Positions 25,470 through 44,640 of a stretch of DNA of 46,627 bases are shown in pieces. Each line of letters begins with the position of its first letter. Position 1 is the stretch's first letter. The notes beneath the pieces are model-generated. The model did not search any database. It worked only from the letters and a program-made list of their open reading frames with translations, and was not told the DNA's origin. The DNA lies in the IMG/VR virus record IMGVR_UViG_2541047706_000005, positions 1 to 46,627 of that record; one strand, written 5' to 3'. Origin of the DNA: a virus. Lineage: Duplodnaviria; Heunggongvirae; Uroviricota; Caudoviricetes. The position numbers were made by a program, and so were the translations under genes.

Positions 25470-27086
<1,617 letters not shown>

Positions 27087-27101: not shown

Positions 27102-27962
27102 ATGGCTAATTTATCTCTTAACCCGATGGCGACCACGAATGCCGCTGGTTCCTTCGGTGTGCAGTCTGATGGCTTCATTCAGGGCGTTGCTCTGGATGAT
27201 CCGGCAAATCGCTTTAACCTGGCGTCCGGCACTGTCGCCGCCACCGAAACCAAACCGCTGTGGGGTGGCCTGCCGGTTGCCGAGTTGCTTCCCGGCGTTA
27301 ACTCCAGTCCTCGCGGGTCGACTATTCGTCGCGCTGCGTCACTGGCTGAGCTCGAAGGCTTCACCGTCTTCAACCAGGCTCACAACGGGCTTACTACTCC
27401 GCAATCACCGGTTCCGCTGTATGCGTCCGGCATGAGCGTTTCATTCTATCGCCTTGGCTCCAACATGCGCGTGCCGCTGAAAGCGTCAGCGCAGGTGGTC
27501 GCGCTGGGAACCGCTGGCGCATCGGTGAAAACGCCGCTGGCGTGGGACTTCGTCAATAACCAGGTGACCACCGCAGCGGCGGCGGCTTTTGCCGGTGCTA
27601 ACATTGCCACCACTGCCGTGACTTACTCGAACGGCGTGGCTACCGCCACCACCGCATCCGCACATGGGCTGACTGCTGGCCAGTACGTGAAGATCAGCGG
27701 CGTAGATCCGGCTGCCTATAACGGCACCGTCGTTGTGCTGAGCGTACCGAGTACGACAACCTTCACCTATGCGCCTGCCAGCGCGCCGGGCGGCTCCGCG
27801 ACCACGCAGGGCACTATCGGCGCTGTGGCTCAGGCAGACATCACCCTGCCGGTGAAAGTCATCTCCATCGAGAGTGGGAACTCTAAAACTGTCAGCTATG
27901 ACAGCGCTACGGGCTTCCTTACCTGGAACAACACCGACAGCTGCGCGCTGGTCTTACTTTAA
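27102..27962 (+). CDS. Head structural protein with Ig-like module (decoration or capsid-associated)
   Basis: Between scaffold and capsid genes; contains AHGLTAGQYVKISGVDPAAYNG...FTY module. Confidence 0.5.
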   Translation: MANLSLNPMATTNAAGSFGVQSDGFIQGVALDDPANRFNLASGTVAATETKPLWGGLPVAELLPGVNSSPRGSTIRRAASLAELEGFTVFNQAHNGLTTPQSPVPLYASGMSVSFYRLGSNMRVPLKASAQVVALGTAGASVKTPLAWDFVNNQVTTAAAAAFAGANIATTAVTYSNGVATATTASAHGLTAGQYVKISGVDPAAYNGTVVVLSVPSTTTFTYAPASAPGGSATTQGTIGAVAQADITLPVKVISIESGNSKTVSYDSATGFLTWNNTDSCALVLL

Positions 27963-27975
27963 TCGGGAGCTTTAA

Positions 27976-29007
27976 ATGGCTGCAATTACCCCCAGCTACA
28001 CCATCGTCAACCCGTCGTATATTGCGCCGGAGTTGATCATTGGTTACCAGCAGGCGTCCGGTGCGTTCGAAACCATCGCCAGCGGTAACCCGCAGGTCCG
28101 CCTTGGCGTAGGCGACCAGTACGTTTATATGCGCCGCCTGGATATTCGTACCCAGGTAACCTCCAGCCAGTCCGGCAACGCCAACCAGCTGCCGAGCGTG
28201 GCGCTCGAGGCGCGCATGATCTCCACTCCAACCTACCTGTTCCGCTGCCGTGGTATCTACGATCACCACGACACCGCGGCGGCCGGTAACTGGAACGTGG
28301 CACTGCCAGAAGCTCAGCGTCTCGGCATGCGTCAGGGCATCTTCCAGCAGTTGCGTTCTGCGCTGCTGTACGGCATGAACCCGGCAGGCGGCGAAGGTCT
28401 GCTGAACACCGCAGGCGCGACCACCGAAACCCTGCCGCCGGACAGCAACAGCAACACCACTGTGCTGACCTACGACCATGGACAGATGGCTGTCTATCTG
28501 CTGGGCCATGTACAGGCCGCGCTGACCCGCACCATGCAACTGGGTCGCCAGCAGCGTGTTGTTATCCTCGGGCCGCAGCGAGTGCTGGGCGCGATGGAGA
28601 TTCAGCAGATCGTTCAGCTGACATCTTATCAGCGTCCTGGCGGCGGTACTGATACCGTCGGCGGCACCGTGAAAGAGGTTCTCCGTGGCGCGAATGTTCA
28701 GGTTGACTGGGTGTACGACGACACGCTGATCGGCGCCGGTGCCGGCGGTACTGACGCGGTAGTTATCACCATCCCGGAAGTGGAAGTGCCGATGGTTAAC
28801 TCCACCGTGAACACCAACGAATTCGCCAAACTGAGCCCGTCTCTGGCGGCTAATGCCCTGATGTTCACCGACATGGCGGCACCGATGGAAATCCCGACGC
28901 CAATCCCCGGGGGCGCTATCGACGTGCTGTCAGAAATGCGCTCTACGGCTGGCTGGGCAGTCCGTCCGGAAGCTATCACCATCCTGTCGATGGCATACAG
29001 CTCCTAA
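27976..29007 (+). CDS. Major capsid protein (putative)
   Basis: 343 aa, followed by a strong terminator, position after scaffold. Confidence 0.6.
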   Translation: MAAITPSYTIVNPSYIAPELIIGYQQASGAFETIASGNPQVRLGVGDQYVYMRRLDIRTQVTSSQSGNANQLPSVALEARMISTPTYLFRCRGIYDHHDTAAAGNWNVALPEAQRLGMRQGIFQQLRSALLYGMNPAGGEGLLNTAGATTETLPPDSNSNTTVLTYDHGQMAVYLLGHVQAALTRTMQLGRQQRVVILGPQRVLGAMEIQQIVQLTSYQRPGGGTDTVGGTVKEVLRGANVQVDWVYDDTLIGAGAGGTDAVVITIPEVEVPMVNSTVNTNEFAKLSPSLAANALMFTDMAAPMEIPTPIPGGAIDVLSEMRSTAGWAVRPEAITILSMAYSS

Positions 29008-31344: not shown

Positions 31345-32739
31345 ATGGCAATTGTTAATATTAACGTGTCGGTGACGAATCCGCCGAAGCCCTCGCAGTT
31401 GTTAAAGTCCGGGGCGATGATTTCTATGGGCGGCACGACGCTGAATGCCGGTGAATATCAGCTGCTGACCAGTGAAACCGACCTGGCCGACATTCTCGCA
31501 CCGGCGAAAACCATCTCGACGCTCGCCTGGGCTACTGGCGTGGTAACGGTCACGCTGGCTGCCGCTCACGGATGGACTAACGGTTCACAGGTCCCGGTGA
31601 TCATCTCCGGCGCGACTCCGGCGGGGTACAATGGCGCCTATACCGCTACGGTGACAGGTACCAACACCTTCACCTATCCGCTGACGGCCAACCCCGGCAG
31701 CGCAACGGCAATGGGTACGGTAAAAACGGTAGTACAGACCGAAATTTCCCAGATGAATACCTCGTTCTGGGCCCAGGGGAAAACGCGGGCAGTTTATGTG
31801 CTGGAACTGGGCGATGTGTCCATGGAGGCAGCTGTCGCAGCGCTGACAACCTTCATTGCTGAAGACGTCTCCCTGGGTAACACCTACCAGAAGTTTTTCT
31901 CCTATCTGGTGCCGCGCGAATGGGATTCGGTCGATGAATTTAAAACCCTGACTAGCCTCTATACTTCGCCGGGAAGTCTGGTTTACTTCTTTGTCACCAC
32001 AACGATCGCGACCTATGAAGCGTGGACAGCGACGAAAAACAAAACTGTCTTTGCTGGCGTCGAGGCTCCGGATATTCCGGCTAGCGAGTTTTCCATGGCC
32101 GGCCCGTTCCAGTCATCCCTGGCAAACGACCCGGGGTCGAGCAACATGGTGCCGCCGATGTCGTACCGCTTTATGTACGGCCTGACTGAGTATCCGCTGG
32201 AAGGCAACAGCGCACTGCTGAAATCGCTTCAGGACAGCAACATCAACTACATCGGTACCGGCGCCGAAGGTGGTCTCAGTAACAAAGTGCTGTTCACCGG
32301 CCGCATGCTCGACGGTAACCCGTTCAACTACTGGTATTCGGTGGCGTGGACGGCGATCAACCTTGAGCTCGACCTGGCGAATGAAATCATCAACGGCTCC
32401 AACACGACCGTTAACCCGCTGTACTACGAGCAGAAGGGCATTGACCGCCTACAGCGTCGCGCTCTGAAAACCTTGCGTAATGGCATCAGCTACGGGCTGA
32501 TCCTCGGTCGCGTCATTGACACGCAACTGACGCAGGAAGATTTCAACACCGAGTATGACAAAGGCACTTACGCCGGCAACGCCGTGATCAACGCCGTTCC
32601 GTTCAGTAACTACAACAGCCTGAACCCCTCCGATTATCAGGAAGGAAAATACAACGGGCTGAGCGCAGTCATGACGCCGCGCCGCGGCTTCGAATCCATC
32701 ACGTTTAACGTGAACGTAACGAACTTTGTAGGGGCGTAA
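31345..32739 (+). CDS. Tail sheath protein (putative) with Ig-like module
   Basis: 464 aa immediately upstream of a 145-aa tube-sized gene; contains AHGWTNGSQVPVIISGATPAGYNG...FTY module. Confidence 0.6.
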   Translation: MAIVNINVSVTNPPKPSQLLKSGAMISMGGTTLNAGEYQLLTSETDLADILAPAKTISTLAWATGVVTVTLAAAHGWTNGSQVPVIISGATPAGYNGAYTATVTGTNTFTYPLTANPGSATAMGTVKTVVQTEISQMNTSFWAQGKTRAVYVLELGDVSMEAAVAALTTFIAEDVSLGNTYQKFFSYLVPREWDSVDEFKTLTSLYTSPGSLVYFFVTTTIATYEAWTATKNKTVFAGVEAPDIPASEFSMAGPFQSSLANDPGSSNMVPPMSYRFMYGLTEYPLEGNSALLKSLQDSNINYIGTGAEGGLSNKVLFTGRMLDGNPFNYWYSVAWTAINLELDLANEIINGSNTTVNPLYYEQKGIDRLQRRALKTLRNGISYGLILGRVIDTQLTQEDFNTEYDKGTYAGNAVINAVPFSNYNSLNPSDYQEGKYNGLSAVMTPRRGFESITFNVNVTNFVGA

Positions 32740-38429: not shown

Positions 38430-38758
38430 GAACCTATGGCCGAAACTCTGAGGGGAAGTGGGTCCTGGTGGAAACCGACGAATATGGGTTTAATGACTCG
38501 GTGTATTTAACCACCCTGATCCAGAATCTGAAACTGGCGCCGCAGGAGTCGCCCTTTTACGCAAATAACGGAATCCCGGCCGCCGGGTCGGTGATCCAGC
38601 AAATCCTGCCGACGTATTACGTAAACCGTATTCAAAAACAGTTCAGCCAGTATTTTTCCTCGCTACAGATTGCGCTGATCAGCGACGACCCGCCTGTTTA
38701 TAACATCTCGGCAATCACAAACGCAGGTTCAAAAATAATTACACAGGTGGCCGTATGA
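38426..38758 (+). CDS. Small baseplate protein (GpW-like position)
   Basis: 110 aa preceding the J-like gene. Confidence 0.4.
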   Translation: MRTYGRNSEGKWVLVETDEYGFNDSVYLTTLIQNLKLAPQESPFYANNGIPAAGSVIQQILPTYYVNRIQKQFSQYFSSLQIALISDDPPVYNISAITNAGSKIITQVAV

Positions 38759-40173
38759 GCGATTTACCAGTCAGCTATACGTCAGCAGGCCCGGTTCCTC
38801 TGACGCCGGAAGAGCTAAGAGCACAGCTCGTTTCTCAGGCAATTGCGCTATCTCCGGGACTCACAACTGATTTGCCTGGATCTCTGATTGAGGACGTGGC
38901 CAGTACCGATGTCGGCGCGCTCATCGTTTGTGATCAAGCAAGGGTTGACCTGATTAACTCGGTGGGGCCACTAAAGGCTAACCTGGCCATGCTGGAGCTT
39001 CTCGCACAGCAGGCTGGTATCCCTGGGCAGAAAACGGCTGGCACAACAACAGTCCCGGTTCAGTTTTCCGGCCCCGCGGGATTTGTTATCCCACAGGGGT
39101 TTATTGTTTCTGATGGGACCTATACCTATTCAGTCAGTGATGCGACGATTATCTCGTCGTCTGGAGTATCTGCCAGCGTATCATGCGAGGGAACGGAGAC
39201 CGGGACCTGGGCGGTGCCGGTAAATACGGTTAACCAGATCATATCCAGTCTACCGTCTGACGTCACCATCACCTGCACCAACCCGATCGCCGGCACTCCG
39301 GGTGCTGACCCGGAAACGAACTATCAGTTTCGTGATCGCGTATGGCAGGCGCAGATGGCCACCGTTCAGGGATATCCTGGATTTATCCGGCAATATCTCA
39401 CCAGCCTTGATAACGTGCAGGCGCGCCTGGTTTCTGTCATTCAGGACGGGGATAAATGGATAGTCATGTGTGCCGGCGGTGATATTTACGATATTGCTGG
39501 CGCGCTCTATAAGTCTGCGGGGGATATCAGCCGGCTGAAAGGGTGTTCACTGAACGTAACGGGGATCACGAATGCAAATCCTGGTGTCGTCAGCACAGAC
39601 CTGACTCATGGTTACACTGACGGCCAGGTTATCCGGATCACTGGCGTTACCGGGATGACGGGTATTAATGACGTCCCTCTGACCGTGACGGTACTGTCTC
39701 CTCACACGTTTTCCATCGGGATTGACACCACGTCATCCGGGACCTGGGGAGGCGGCGGCGAGGTGACACCGAACGTCAGAAACAATACCGTGACGGTGAA
39801 TGACTGGCCTGATAACTACGTGATCCCGTTCGTGACGCCATTGCTGCAGCGGGTCACTGTGACGTATCAGTGGGGGACAGAAAGTGTTAACTACCTGACA
39901 GATGCCACGGTCGCCTCTCTGGTCTCGGCGCCTACGATTCAGTATGTGAACGGCATATTCGCCGGGAAACCGCTGAACGTTAACAACCTGAAAGACGCAT
40001 TTTTGCAGGCGATTAACTCGACAATCGACATGGGGCTGATCAGCACTCTAAACGTCGTGGTCACCATCAATGGTGTGATAACGCCACCGGATGCCGGGAC
40101 GAATATCATCAGCGGCGATAAGTTCAGTTATTTTTATATCGCGTCGGATGGCGTGATCGTAACAGGGGCGTAG
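38755..40173 (+). CDS. Baseplate J-like protein with Ig-like module
   Basis: 472 aa; contains THGYTDGQVIRITGVTGMTGINDVPLTVTVLSPHTFSI module. Confidence 0.5.
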   Translation: MSDLPVSYTSAGPVPLTPEELRAQLVSQAIALSPGLTTDLPGSLIEDVASTDVGALIVCDQARVDLINSVGPLKANLAMLELLAQQAGIPGQKTAGTTTVPVQFSGPAGFVIPQGFIVSDGTYTYSVSDATIISSSGVSASVSCEGTETGTWAVPVNTVNQIISSLPSDVTITCTNPIAGTPGADPETNYQFRDRVWQAQMATVQGYPGFIRQYLTSLDNVQARLVSVIQDGDKWIVMCAGGDIYDIAGALYKSAGDISRLKGCSLNVTGITNANPGVVSTDLTHGYTDGQVIRITGVTGMTGINDVPLTVTVLSPHTFSIGIDTTSSGTWGGGGEVTPNVRNNTVTVNDWPDNYVIPFVTPLLQRVTVTYQWGTESVNYLTDATVASLVSAPTIQYVNGIFAGKPLNVNNLKDAFLQAINSTIDMGLISTLNVVVTINGVITPPDAGTNIISGDKFSYFYIASDGVIVTGA

Positions 40174-40174
40174 C

Positions 40175-40879
40175 ATGCTGGACGATATCATCCGGTCGTA
40201 TATGTATACGCAATACAACGACGATGACAATCTGCGGGCGTTTTTTACTGCGTATAACTCGATGGCGCAGGGCATTTATGACTGGATGGTTAATGCCAAC
40301 CTGCCGATTTTCATCGGTGACTACAACACCGGAGACCAGCTCAGATGGATTGCCCATGGCATCTATGGCGTGTTGCCGCCGGTGATTTCCAGCAGCGATC
40401 AGCAGGAGATAGGCCCATATAACACCTTCGAATTTAACCAGTTGGCATTCAATGAATACCGGGTGATTGACCAGTCGAACCAGGTTGTTGTCTCCGATGA
40501 CATTTTTAAGCGGATCATGACCTGGAATTTTTATAAAGGTGACGGCTTCTATTTCTCTATCCCATGGATAAAACGGCGTATTCTGCGGTTCCTGTTGGGA
40601 GTGAATGGCACCGATATCCTCAATGACCAGCGGTGGAGTATATCGATCCAGTTTGTGGATGGCGGGATCGTGATATCCATCTATAAGGGGCGCCGCAGGT
40701 TCACGCGGAGCGCTATCTACAACGCATCGGCCTATAACTCCAGGAAGTACAACCAGAAGGACACGGCCTTTGTGATCACCGAGGATTTCGAGTTCGCTAT
40801 TTTCTTCAAGCAGGCCATGGATAGCGGCCTGCTGCACATGCCGTTCTATCAGTCAATTTCGGTGGAAATTATTGATTGA
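40175..40879 (+). CDS. Baseplate/tail protein
   Basis: ORF track. Confidence 0.45.
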   Translation: MLDDIIRSYMYTQYNDDDNLRAFFTAYNSMAQGIYDWMVNANLPIFIGDYNTGDQLRWIAHGIYGVLPPVISSSDQQEIGPYNTFEFNQLAFNEYRVIDQSNQVVVSDDIFKRIMTWNFYKGDGFYFSIPWIKRRILRFLLGVNGTDILNDQRWSISIQFVDGGIVISIYKGRRRFTRSAIYNASAYNSRKYNQKDTAFVITEDFEFAIFFKQAMDSGLLHMPFYQSISVEIID

Positions 40880-40937
40880 AGCACAGTTCCTGTGGTGTAG
40901 AATTTATCGCATCCACCACAGCATGGTTATCATTAAA

Positions 40938-41639
40938 ATGAAAAAATTGGTCCTTCTCGGATTATTGTCAGTTTCACTATGCACGGGTACTTCCCTTGCA
41001 GCTTCATTTGATTGCTCTAAAGCAAAAAGCTTTGCTGAGAAAACAATATGTGAGAACCCTAAGCTTTCAAAGGATGATGATGACTTAAAATATTTATATG
41101 CAAACGCTAAGGCATACACCAAAGACCGGAAGGCGTTTTCTGAGATAACTAAAGCTCTTTTGGATTCAAGAGAACGTTGCAGTGATCTCAAATGTGTTGA
41201 TGAATGGTATGATACTGCGTTTGCAATTTACGGCGCCATAAAGGAAACTGGCATACCAGAAACCAATGGCGTAAATGATATATTAAAGAATGAAGGTGTA
41301 ACAAAACCTTCAGAAATTAATGAAAAACCTACTGAGATTACAACGCCGTCAGCCAAGAAGACAAAGGAAAACAAAAAAGATTTTAGTTTGTACGACTCAA
41401 AGGATAGAGCCGCGCCAGTTGAACATAACGCAATATTATATAAAGACACTCCAGAGGCATTCGAATTTATAGATACACTTGTTGGGTTTGTCAGACAAAG
41501 CTCTTACAAATGTGACTCTGTTAGCTCTTTCATACCCTTGGTTTCATCGAATGGCTTTACGCTCGCATGTAATAAATTCAGCTACAAATATGAAATTAAA
41601 AATAACGGCGGAAATGTCTCTGTTTCTGTAGATAATTAG
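40938..41639 (+). CDS. Secreted DUF1311/LprI-like protein (moron)
   Basis: Signal peptide MKKLVLLGLLSVSLCTGTSLAAS; Cys motif C..A..FAEKTIC..P.L...D..L..LY; AT-rich, own promoter-like element and terminator. Confidence 0.6.
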   Translation: MKKLVLLGLLSVSLCTGTSLAASFDCSKAKSFAEKTICENPKLSKDDDDLKYLYANAKAYTKDRKAFSEITKALLDSRERCSDLKCVDEWYDTAFAIYGAIKETGIPETNGVNDILKNEGVTKPSEINEKPTEITTPSAKKTKENKKDFSLYDSKDRAAPVEHNAILYKDTPEAFEFIDTLVGFVRQSSYKCDSVSSFIPLVSSNGFTLACNKFSYKYEIKNNGGNVSVSVDN

Positions 41640-41712: not shown

Positions 41713-41733
41713 ATGCCTAAATCCGGAGGAGAC

Positions 41734-44640
41734 ATGGCACTAACCCTTTTGGCTACAAACAACGCAGAAAGCACGCTGGCTTCTGCTATCAGCGCAACCG
41801 ACACGTCGCTGATCGTTAGCGCTGGAACTGGTGCCGAGTTCCCTGATGCTGTGGCAGGCGAGAGCTACTTTAAACTCACTCTCACCGATGCCGCCACCGG
41901 CTCACAGGTTGAGATCGTGAACGTGACAGCCAAGGCTGGGGACATCTTCACGATTGAACGCGCACAGGAAGGAACGATGGCGCGTGCATGGGCGGCCAAC
42001 GATATGGTTGCCAATATGATGACCGCTGACACGCTGAATGTGATCGCACAATACACGCAGCAGGCCGGGGAATCAGCAGCACAGTCAATTGAGGCGGCTA
42101 ATAACGCCTCTGAATATGCAAAGAACAAATATACATTCTACAAAACCGCCGGCGATCCTGATGGCACCATTGCGGGCCTGGCGGCGACAACTGACGGACA
42201 GTCGTTCTGGGTAGCTCAGGGGCCAGATGCGCTTTCTGCTGCATGGCAGTATCAAAACAATGCTGGCGTGGCCGTATTGCAGGCAAAGCAGCCAGGCACG
42301 GCAGCCATAACCGGGACAATCCGCGAATTCCCCACGCTGGAGGCGGCACAGGATGATGCCGATGCCGGCAATATTCCTACAGGTTCAACTGCGTATTATC
42401 GAAGCGCTGACGACGAAACTCTTGCGATTGAGGTCATTAACACTTCAGGAACGCTGCAGCCTACTGGACGAAAAATGCCATCCGCAATGCCAATGGGTTA
42501 CCAGTCTGCTACAGCTGTGAGTAGCGGTGCGGCTAATACCATTGCTATCACTATCCCCGGATTATTAGTGGACGGAAGCTTAATTTATTTTCTGTCCCCT
42601 ATATTGAACACCTCATCAGTCAATGTGACTGTAACTGATGCTAAGGGTAATTCTGTAATAAGAGCTGTACAGAAACAAAATAACGCGCCATTAGTCGGAA
42701 GTGAATTGCTGCTAAACCAGCCAGTATTAATGGAATTCCGCACTGGGACTGCTAACAATTTTGTCCTTGTGGCATCCGGCCCAGTAGCTGCTGAACTTGC
42801 GTCAAGAATTTCCACGCTTGAATTAAATAGCGTAGCGTTATTGTCTGGCGTTGCTAATACTGCGGACGCCTACACCGCGTCAGCGTCAGCGATACCAGGC
42901 CTGGTTGCCTCTGACCGCGTTTTCCTTTTCACTCCGAGTGCGACGAACACGACACGGACGCCGACCTTATCCGTGAATGGCGGCACTGCGCGCCAGATCA
43001 AACAGGCGAATGGTACCAACGTCGCAGCGGGAGACCTGGTCTCTGGCTACCCTTATTTATTAAAATTCAATTTTGCATCGGCTGACTTTCGTATGCTCAC
43101 ATACCCAGCGGACCGGACGCGTCTGCTCAGCGGCCAGCAGAAGGCCACCGTAACCAGTGACGCAACAAGCCCGAACGCTATATCTTTAACAATCCCGGGC
43201 CTTATCGCGGACGGCACACAAATCACATTCGAGCCAGCTGTCACCAATACCGGGGCGGTGACGCTGCTAATCACCAACATGTATGGCGACACCGTGACTC
43301 GCACCCTGATGAAAGGGGCTAACACTCCTCTCGTCGGTGGTGAACTGAAGTACGCCATGCCGGTTTCTATCATGTTCAGGGGGGCTCCACAGAACAACTT
43401 TAAGCTCCTATATGCTGGCGACCCTACCACGGATATACAGACCCTATCGAACGACGTTACGACGCTCAAGGGGTCGCTGACAGACCCTTATGCTGCTCTG
43501 GCGGATAAACTCGTGGGCACCGGGGTATCATCAGACCAGTCACCATTCGGTACTATAACTTGGTCCGCGGGGGTTAAGAGCGTCACTAAGCGGCAGATCA
43601 TTTGTACGTCTGTCGGGTCTTCTGTTGGCGTTGGGGCCGGCTCTACTGGCGGTGGTGCGGCAGGTGCCGCTTATGCACCGAACACACTGTTCGTCAACGC
43701 CTTGAAGGAAGAGCTTAAACAGTACGGCGAGTTTGACGTCATCGATGACAACCAGTGCATACCAACTCAGGCGATTCAGCAGTTCGCTGCCCAGCTAGCG
43801 AATTCGCCTTATTCAACCTCCGACTTTGTTTTGATTGTAGGGGGGATGAATGATGCGCCAGTTGGTAACTTCAACATGGGGCGCACATTCCCCGGTCAAC
43901 AAACGTCTCTCGAGTCGCTGGTAGACTTGTGTCTGGCACGAGGAGCGATTCCAATCATTTGCACTACTCCACATCATAATGTGGAAATGTCTCAGACGTA
44001 CCCCACAATCCCCGGTGGTAACCCGCTGTTCTGGCCGTTCAGGACATATAATGTCACAAGTACATATGTCTTCGACGCCGTTGCAAATACCATCACGCAG
44101 AGTAACTTTGCTAACCCGAATTATGGCGGCAATATTCTGAAGCCGGGGCATACTCTGCGCGTAGAAAGTGGAGACAATATCGGCAACTATACTATCACGG
44201 CCATTTCCTCTGACCGGAATACCATAACCGTCCAAGAGACAATCCCGGTAAGTGGAAGCTACTCGACAACGGTCAGACACTTTAACCTGCAGTCCATCGC
44301 TGAGGATATTCTTTACCCTGCACCGTCGGTTTCCTTTGTAACAAAAGACTGGTCCGGTAGCGGCGTTAAGGTACAGGGAGATGTGCGGTTCGAAATGGTG
44401 AATAATATGCAAAGGGTCGTCGCACGCAAAAAAGGCGCGTTCCTCGCAGACTGTGAAAAGTCGTTCTTTAAGTATGGTGTAGAGGTTGGTGGTTACTCGT
44501 CGGTATATAACGTCCCAGCTGGAAACTACAATCACATGAACGATAACGGGTACACAGTAACTTTCGACTACACGCTGAAAGTCGCAGCAAGGAAGATTGC
44601 CAATCTCATATTCGGAGATAAATATTACTCTGCAGCATAA
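41734..44640 (+). CDS. Tail fibre protein with three internal repeats and C-terminal SGNH/GDSL-hydrolase-like domain
   Basis: N-terminal domain shared with second fibre; three approximately 90-aa repeats (IPGL..DG...PLVGGEL...NF.L); C-terminal blocks GSSVG and GGMNDAP. Confidence 0.65.
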   Translation: MALTLLATNNAESTLASAISATDTSLIVSAGTGAEFPDAVAGESYFKLTLTDAATGSQVEIVNVTAKAGDIFTIERAQEGTMARAWAANDMVANMMTADTLNVIAQYTQQAGESAAQSIEAANNASEYAKNKYTFYKTAGDPDGTIAGLAATTDGQSFWVAQGPDALSAAWQYQNNAGVAVLQAKQPGTAAITGTIREFPTLEAAQDDADAGNIPTGSTAYYRSADDETLAIEVINTSGTLQPTGRKMPSAMPMGYQSATAVSSGAANTIAITIPGLLVDGSLIYFLSPILNTSSVNVTVTDAKGNSVIRAVQKQNNAPLVGSELLLNQPVLMEFRTGTANNFVLVASGPVAAELASRISTLELNSVALLSGVANTADAYTASASAIPGLVASDRVFLFTPSATNTTRTPTLSVNGGTARQIKQANGTNVAAGDLVSGYPYLLKFNFASADFRMLTYPADRTRLLSGQQKATVTSDATSPNAISLTIPGLIADGTQITFEPAVTNTGAVTLLITNMYGDTVTRTLMKGANTPLVGGELKYAMPVSIMFRGAPQNNFKLLYAGDPTTDIQTLSNDVTTLKGSLTDPYAALADKLVGTGVSSDQSPFGTITWSAGVKSVTKRQIICTSVGSSVGVGAGSTGGGAAGAAYAPNTLFVNALKEELKQYGEFDVIDDNQCIPTQAIQQFAAQLANSPYSTSDFVLIVGGMNDAPVGNFNMGRTFPGQQTSLESLVDLCLARGAIPIICTTPHHNVEMSQTYPTIPGGNPLFWPFRTYNVTSTYVFDAVANTITQSNFANPNYGGNILKPGHTLRVESGDNIGNYTITAISSDRNTITVQETIPVSGSYSTTVRHFNLQSIAEDILYPAPSVSFVTKDWSGSGVKVQGDVRFEMVNNMQRVVARKKGAFLADCEKSFFKYGVEVGGYSSVYNVPAGNYNHMNDNGYTVTFDYTLKVAARKIANLIFGDKYYSAA

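Follow-up and report, generated by a model that had tools for sequence, protein, structure and literature searches.

The phage immunoglobulin (Ig)-like domains, including T4 Hoc and the Big_2, FN3 and I-set domains of capsid, tube and fibre proteins, are beta-rich, dispensable for assembly, and thought to act as weak carbohydrate adhesins. A different small domain, E1_FCCH (PF16190), is the first of the catalytic cysteine half-domains of the eukaryotic enzymes UBA1, UBA6 and UBA7; in Uba1 structures this barrel contacts a protein, ubiquitin. E1_FCCH is also annotated on phage proteins. It forms a six-stranded closed antiparallel barrel, and cryo-electron microscopy has shown FCCH domains facing outward as "petals" on gp13 and gp39, which are tail tube proteins of siphophages (PMC13576161). 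FCCH is considered specific to eukaryotes in a recent survey (PMC11354881). Of the three sites at which the K1F endosialidase binds polysialic acid, one is in its beta-barrel, which is also a hotspot of host discrimination (PMC12632334). Here, we analyze the IMG/VR virus record IMGVR_UViG_2541047706_000005, a 46,627-nucleotide stretch of Caudoviricetes DNA (hereafter, the window), in which three proteins, one of the head, the tail sheath protein and baseplate J, each carry a module of about 70 amino acids (aa). Taken as a whole, the explanation that we favor on balance is that these are homologous barrels that were gained separately and have an exposed role in adhesion.

We set the limits of the module with a hidden Markov model (HMM) built on all three copies:

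27618..27830, + strand: module copy 1, aa 173-243 of the head protein
31519..31731, + strand: module copy 2, aa 59-129 of the sheath
39562..39774, + strand: module copy 3, aa 270-340 of baseplate J

A preliminary description of the window had reported one Ig-like module, with the pattern AHG.T.G..V.I.G..PA.YNG...FTY, in the same three genes, and had named all-against-all alignment, an HMM search of Ig-type families and structure prediction as checks. The three segments are indeed present on the + strand of those genes and at approximately those positions (27627-27850 translates to SNGVATATTASAHGLTAGQYVKISGVDPAAYNGTVVVLSVPSTTTFTYAPASAPGG...). The third interval, given as 39520-39745, starts about 15 aa too early. 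The pattern fits copies 1 and 2 in full but copy 3 only in its first half (THGYTDGQVIRITG), with GMTGIND and TFSIG in place of PA.YNG and FTY.

Based on composition-adjusted BLASTP, the head and sheath copies share 47% identity over 76 aa (E=1e-11). The head and baseplate J copies align over the first half only (E=0.002), and the match between the sheath and baseplate J copies is not significant (E=0.72). We also compared profiles of the orthologue families, drawn from Yersinia, Pantoea, Rac-SA53, pPE4 and Shewanella phages, using hhalign with column-shuffled profiles as controls (overall about 10.5 ± 3). All three pairs align in register and score above their controls: 54.8 for head versus sheath (E=9e-11; controls 10.4 ± 1.8, maximum 14.7), 25.3 for head versus baseplate J (E=1.8e-4; control maximum 19.9), and 28.6 for sheath versus baseplate J (E=3.8e-5; control maximum 24.0). 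The all-against-all comparison thus agrees with the earlier claim that one domain type occurs in all three proteins, with the baseplate J copy tied to the other two at the profile level only. The sheath copy is also matched by the repeat family phrog_9998 (E=1e-6). Scanning the entire window with the HMM in all six frames yielded no fourth copy (next best E=0.53), and none was found in the 975-aa fibre, which was checked for a further copy. In all three genes, the GC content of the module is above that of the rest of the gene (64.8 vs 59.0% for 27618-27830, 62.0 vs 54.7% for 31522-31734, and 57.6 vs 53.8% for 39568-39777), which may reflect an Ala/Gly/Thr-rich composition and not foreign origin.

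Copy 3 is clearly an E1_FCCH domain. It scores 52.8 bits against this family, for which the Pfam gathering threshold is 29.5, and its orthologues from Yersinia and Pantoea reach 48.6 and 56.1 bits. Using phmmer, it matches E1 enzymes in the PDB (9qgg, E=6.5e-7; UBA6, 5e-6). Copy 3 is in fact closer to the animal E1 FCCH (PDB 9qgg, 7sol) than to the other two copies in its own genome: it is 41-47% identical to the FCCH of animal UBA1/UBA6, and 26-31% identical to copies 1 and 2. Copies 1 and 2 form a divergent AHG...YNGT...TFTY subtype, while copy 3 is of the E1_FCCH type. We isolated 75 instances of the head/sheath subtype, of which 19 match End_beta_barrel (PF12195, the endosialidase barrel) and 18 match E1_FCCH. 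The profile of these 75 sequences matches 4hiz, the endosialidase of phi92 (E=3.9e-5), as well as an E1 enzyme (E=0.011), and the best family instances reach E of about 1e-5 for End_beta_barrel, which is still below threshold.

For the head copy alone, AF2 run on an alignment of the 75 instances predicted a six-stranded all-beta domain with a mean predicted local distance difference test (pLDDT) score of 84.4. Foldseek placed the phi92 and K1F endosialidases first, followed by the FCCH of Uba1/Uba6 and, after these, by further small barrels, the P22 I-domain among them. The best PDB match is endoNF 1v0e/3gvk (TMq 0.71, root-mean-square deviation 2.6 Å, 77 columns, probability 1.0), and the Uba1/Uba6 FCCH follows with probabilities of 0.93-1.0 and TMq of 0.5-0.6. 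With six predicted strands and FCCH among its matches, the head copy has the fold that defines FCCH, as far as prediction goes. Altogether, we are highly confident that the three segments are homologous six-stranded closed beta-barrels of about 70 aa, within a superfamily that includes E1_FCCH and End_beta_barrel. Several results weigh against this assignment for copies 1 and 2. The head copy reaches only 13-15.9 bits for E1_FCCH and the sheath copy does not match it; for End_beta_barrel, with a threshold of 35 bits, the head copy scores 13.3 bits, and the sheath copy has no Pfam match at all. In the AF2 model of the full-length head protein, the insert has pLDDT <45, where the alignment is shallow, and the Foldseek E-values of the module are modest (~0.02). 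The tie of copies 1 and 2 to FCCH/End_beta_barrel is therefore at the superfamily level only, through profiles and the predicted fold.

We aligned each host protein with its orthologues (alignments A1 for the head protein, A2 for the sheath and A3 for baseplate J), and in each case the module is a clean indel in otherwise collinear sequence, placed as a self-contained unit in a loop of the host protein. The head module lies within an insertion of ~83 aa (aa ~176-258) that is missing from the Rac-SA53, pPE4 and Shewanella QDWS orthologues. A search with the full head protein returned only matches of at least 92% identity and thus no diversity; with the Rac-SA53 orthologue as query, module-less homologues of 193-220 aa were found to be the common database form. 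The sheath module is inserted after the N-terminal ~55 aa; it is degenerate in Rac-SA53 and pPE4, having lost the HG, and is missing in QDWS. The baseplate J module is a 68-aa insertion (aa 276-343) that is missing in Rac-SA53 and pPE4 and present in QDWS. Given these clean indels, it appears that the host protein can fold and assemble without its module. Across 116 close relatives, the head module is about twice as variable as the protein core, with the motif residues invariant. The QDWS sheath (L004 25238-26560, - strand) contains a different insert of ~80 aa at another site, made up of two repeats (…GSGYTSAPTVTFS… / …GSGYTAAPTVSFS…; A2 columns 212-297), which suggests that the sheath accepts different accessory modules at different loops.

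What might such barrels do? In the mechanism that we propose, they would project from the outer surface of the head, tail and baseplate; by a rough estimate, each virion would have a few hundred barrels on its head, ~140 along the sheath, and 6-12 at the baseplate. There, they would bind capsule, lipopolysaccharide (LPS) or other polysaccharide weakly and multivalently, and so keep the virion at the cell surface until the tail fibre engages. Analogous cases would be the endosialidase barrel with its non-catalytic site for polysialic acid, and the Ig-like decorations on other phages. The proposal draws on the autonomy of the barrels, their apparent dispensability, their variability, and their use across phage fibres, spikes, sheaths, baseplates and tubes, as well as on the outward FCCH petals and the K1F polysialic-acid site. 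We put forward only tentatively this coat of barrels as weak, multivalent sites of glycan adhesion on the head, sheath and baseplate, and their outward orientation on these parts of this phage is presumed from the same comparisons. A surface-exposed and possibly carbohydrate-binding decoration, as the preliminary description had it, is still the most reasonable reading. A role in protein-protein contact would be equally compatible with the fold, since the E1 FCCH contacts ubiquitin, and this counts against adhesion.

In a competing explanation, the barrels are structural, with extra contacts between subunits that stiffen or stabilize the capsid, sheath and baseplate lattices and with no external ligand. 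The protein that hosts copy 1 resembles cement/decoration proteins, whose job is to stabilize the capsid; the I-domain barrel of the P22 coat protein (2m5s) is among the fold matches, and the FCCH barrel of E1 makes protein contacts. On the other hand, natural orthologues assemble without each of the modules, and in the solved siphophage tubes FCCH forms outward petals and not lattice contacts. Long beads-on-a-string arrays of the module in giant fibre-like proteins are typical of modules for reach or adhesion, and the raised variability of the head module fits an exposed, interacting surface. We thus consider lattice stabilization unlikely, though it is the competing explanation that survives best.

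The module belongs to a large family, which bears on its origin in this genome. When we used the three-copy profile to search 1.84 billion representative proteins, it returned 3,551 clusters at E<=1e-3, with 476 at E<=1e-10. Many of the members are giant proteins in which as many as 19 copies stand in tandem at a spacing of 60-80 aa. Ten of these tandem-array proteins match E1_FCCH, some together with End_beta_barrel, and their PHROG matches are to families of virion structural proteins, tail fibres and major tail proteins. Matches in BFVD include baseplate J, baseplate wedge, tail sheath, fibre and tailspike proteins. E1-type modules are found in tail proteins of Xanthomonas, Pelagibacter and Vibrio podophages, and in GenBank some Vibrio phage genes are named "FCCH domain ubiquitin-activating enzyme E1."

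Comparison with this family suggests that the three copies were probably gained separately and long ago from a large circulating pool of modules, rather than copied within the genome, and that the sheath and baseplate insertions predate the split of this lineage from Rac-SA53-like and Shewanella QDWS-like phages, with the head insertion younger. In a reciprocal phmmer ranking against 523 family instances, a query with the head copy puts the sheath copy in 144th place, and a query with the sheath copy puts the head copy in 88th. For the baseplate copy, the head copy ranks 125th and the sheath copy 337th, and its best non-orthologous matches are eukaryotic E1 FCCH. In neighbor-joining (NJ) trees of 51 instances, a clade of the head and sheath copies appears in 0 of 100 bootstraps, while the baseplate copies group with E1 FCCH in 73 of 100. 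The three different phyletic patterns of the insertions point to separate gain or loss events. Among related phages, module and host protein have similar levels of identity in the sheath (36% vs 40%) and in baseplate J (39% vs 43%); that is, these modules diverge about as much as their host proteins, which suggests that both insertions are old and vertically inherited. Only the Klebsiella/Yersinia/Pantoea clade has the head insertion. Some caution comes from the tests themselves, and it tells against separate gain: they use a 70-aa domain, NJ trees, and a pool that was picked with a profile from the same copies, and consensus-like repeats may score artificially high in the phmmer ranking.

The preliminary description had instead attributed the three copies to intragenomic shuffling, in which one copy would have been duplicated in this lineage, with the duplicates ending up in two further structural genes. 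Two observations are in line with this: the head and sheath copies (47% identical) are more alike than the sheath copies of the window and Rac-SA53 (36%), and the head insertion is confined to a clade that already carried the sheath copy. However, there is no nucleotide similarity between the copies beyond a weak 24-nt blastn match, and their identity at third codon positions is 33-44% (33% for head vs sheath); recent shuffling at the DNA level is ruled out on these grounds. Older duplication is opposed by the 143 and 87 other family instances that outrank the partner copy in the reciprocal searches, by the lack of a head-sheath clade in the bootstraps, by the subtype of the baseplate copy, which is nearer to eukaryotic E1 than to either partner, and by the three phyletic patterns of the three insertions. 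Shuffling within the genome is thus improbable, and the claim is not supported. The sequences are short and the pool is biased, so we reserve a similarly small probability for the more specific case that the head copy is a duplicate of the sheath copy.

The similarity of copy 3 to E1 FCCH also bears on the origin of that part of the ubiquitin-activating enzyme. The family is huge in phages and prokaryotes, versus a single insert in one eukaryotic enzyme lineage, which would favor transfer from prokaryote or phage to eukaryote. As a speculation that we rate as rather doubtful, the E1 FCCH of UBA1/UBA6/UBA7 could descend from a barrel on the surface of phage or bacterial virion proteins or, more locally, this lineage, with the barrel on head, sheath and baseplate, could display it as a virion-wide lectin coat.

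We also weighed the fold named in the preliminary description, an Ig-like beta-sandwich of the Big_2/FN3 type. The module does resemble phage Ig-like domains in being small, beta-rich, rich in T/S/A/G, and located on virion proteins. However, the HMM search found no match to Ig, Big_2 or FN3 families in the three proteins, the isolated modules, or the 75 family members, and matched copy 3 to E1_FCCH instead, above the threshold. The structure prediction for the head copy is a closed six-stranded barrel that resembles the endosialidase and FCCH barrels and not a beta-sandwich, and its top Foldseek matches in the PDB include no Ig-type protein. An Ig-like domain is therefore very improbable, and we regard this assignment as ruled out by both the sequence families and the predicted barrel. 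Finally, a chance or compositional alignment of T/A/S/G-rich low-complexity sequence has a negligible probability: although the head and sheath segments are compositionally biased, and tblastn found the head-type module only in orthologues, probably because of its low-complexity filter, a chance alignment is ruled out by the composition-adjusted BLASTP of head versus sheath, by hhalign scores well beyond the shuffled controls, by motif positions (H-G, G, G, N-G, F) kept across hundreds of instances, and by a fold that AF2 predicts with confidence.

The structural region of the window is ~96% identical to Klebsiella phage vB_Kpn_Chronis, and near-identical proteins are found in many E. coli, Klebsiella and Raoultella genomes; the source element is a Chronis-like temperate myophage or prophage. 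The genes that concern us here are as follows:

25473-27086, + strand: NUDIX-DUF2213 scaffold/protease-like protein
27102..27962, + strand: capsid-decoration-like protein of 286 aa, which carries module copy 1 (phrog_6268, E=3e-96)
27976..29007, + strand: major capsid protein, without the module (phrog_6671/phrog_264 major head protein; weak PF09950)
31345..32739, + strand: tail sheath of 464 aa, which carries module copy 2 (phrog_205, E=9.7e-52)
38755..40173, + strand: Baseplate J (wedge) of 472 aa, which carries module copy 3 (PF04865, 45.8 bits, cutoff 21.1; phrog_6, E=1.3e-24)

The order of the structural genes is scaffold/protease-like protein, 286-aa protein, major capsid, head-tail genes, sheath, 145-aa tube, chaperone and tape measure, followed by baseplate genes that include baseplate J, then a gpI-like protein and fibres. 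The gene labels of the preliminary description stand, and its sheath and baseplate J are confirmed by the phrog_205 and PF04865 matches. Its head protein at 27102-27962, on the other hand, is decoration-like and is not the major capsid protein, which is encoded at 27976-29007; the PdC23 counterpart of the latter gene is annotated as major capsid protein.

The phrog_6268 profile, with 211 positions, spans all 286 aa of the decoration-like protein. Its non-module part is modeled by AF2 at pLDDT ~85-92, and the top Foldseek matches of this part are the decoration/cement proteins of FCWL1, HFTV1, T1, E217, Pam3 and TW1 (probability 0.97-0.99). From these fold matches and its position just before the capsid gene, we read 27102-27962 as a probable capsid decoration protein. 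The E-values of the decoration-fold matches, 0.02-0.5, and a sequence search of the decoration family against the PDB, which gave no match, weigh against this assignment; the same kind of search with the sheath family and the capsid protein also gave no match, and the sheath protein has no match in Pfam either.

Two orthologues of the decoration-like protein, PdC23 gp05 (L005 5303-6175) and YenM_06.16-1 gp053 (L006 6439-7299), are labeled "endosialidase" in GenBank. Neither matches any Pfam family, the sialidase propeller included, so the label is likely a misannotation. It presumably stems from the remote likeness of the module to the endosialidase barrel, a resemblance that among these proteins is limited to the window's own head module, where it is weak (13.3 bits), and is not seen in the PdC23 and YenM_06.16-1 orthologues.

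Three other genes of the structural region have features of their own. The 537-aa protein encoded directly upstream of the decoration-like gene combines an N-terminal NUDIX hydrolase (aa 9-112, 60 bits) with DUF2213, which is head protease/scaffold-like, and has a charged K/E/A-rich stretch at aa ~295-410. Joining a NUDIX enzyme to a head-assembly protein is unusual; the fusion is kept in Chronis, PdC23 and Rac-SA53 under the annotation "nudix" or "TolA protein." A 255-aa open reading frame (40872-41639, + strand) without a Pfam match, which follows the gpI-like baseplate gene and precedes the gene for the 975-aa fibre, encodes a signal-peptide/lipobox-like N-terminus (MKKLVLLGLLSVSLCTG...). 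It lies at a sharp GC trough, with 38.7% versus ~49-54% in the neighboring baseplate genes, and looks like a moron (cargo) gene. The 975-aa tail fibre/spike itself (41713-44640, + strand) has a sub-threshold match to GDSL/SGNH esterases at aa 635-763 (27.3 bits; cutoff 32.9), and this segment may be a receptor-destroying domain of the polysaccharide deacetylase type.

FCCH-type barrels on phage virion proteins have already been described (PMC13576161) and are used as product names in GenBank. Mild surprise comes only from the mosaic distribution over three sites and from the 41-47% identity between one subtype and the FCCH of eukaryotic E1, and the practical consequences are modest. Our analysis corrects the annotation of the head orthologues named "endosialidase" and of sheath and decoration proteins named "hypothetical." FCCH-type barrels had been documented on siphophage tail tubes, and their known hosts now include a decoration-like protein, a sheath and baseplate J as well. 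Related phages that carry or lack each insertion offer a clean natural experiment on accessory barrels. If the barrels do bind capsule or LPS, this would affect how temperate phages of Klebsiella and E. coli adsorb, and the modules might be exchanged or engineered.

Three known systems resemble the modules described here, and a fourth resembles the host of copy 1. The first is E1_FCCH: copy 3 is a member by score, the six-stranded closed barrel is the same, and in both cases it is an insertion in a larger protein. On phage, E1_FCCH was already known from the tail tubes gp13/gp39 of siphophages NBD2 and MED16 (PMC13576161), whereas the hosts here are a decoration-like protein, a sheath and baseplate J. 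The window also differs in having no E1 enzyme context and in that copies 1 and 2 are sub-threshold members of a divergent subtype. The endosialidase barrel (PF12195; K1F endoNF 1V0E/3GVK, phi92 4HIZ) includes the best structural matches of the head copy; it too sits as an insertion within a virion protein, and with its polysialic-acid site (PMC12632334) it is our working model for the function of the module. Unlike the endosialidases, the window proteins have no sialidase propeller, and their PF12195 scores are below threshold. Phage Ig-like decorations share with the module that they are small, beta-rich accessory domains on several kinds of virion protein, but theirs is a beta-sandwich and here it is a closed barrel with no Ig-type match. 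Finally, the non-module part of the 27102-27962 protein has its best fold matches, at weak E-values, among the trimeric decoration/cement proteins of the lambda gpD-like/T1/FCWL1/HFTV1/TW1/Pam3 kind. The matched chains are much shorter (129-211 aa vs 286 aa here), and the gene order is alike: in lambda, D precedes E, and in the window the decoration-like gene lies directly before the major capsid gene.

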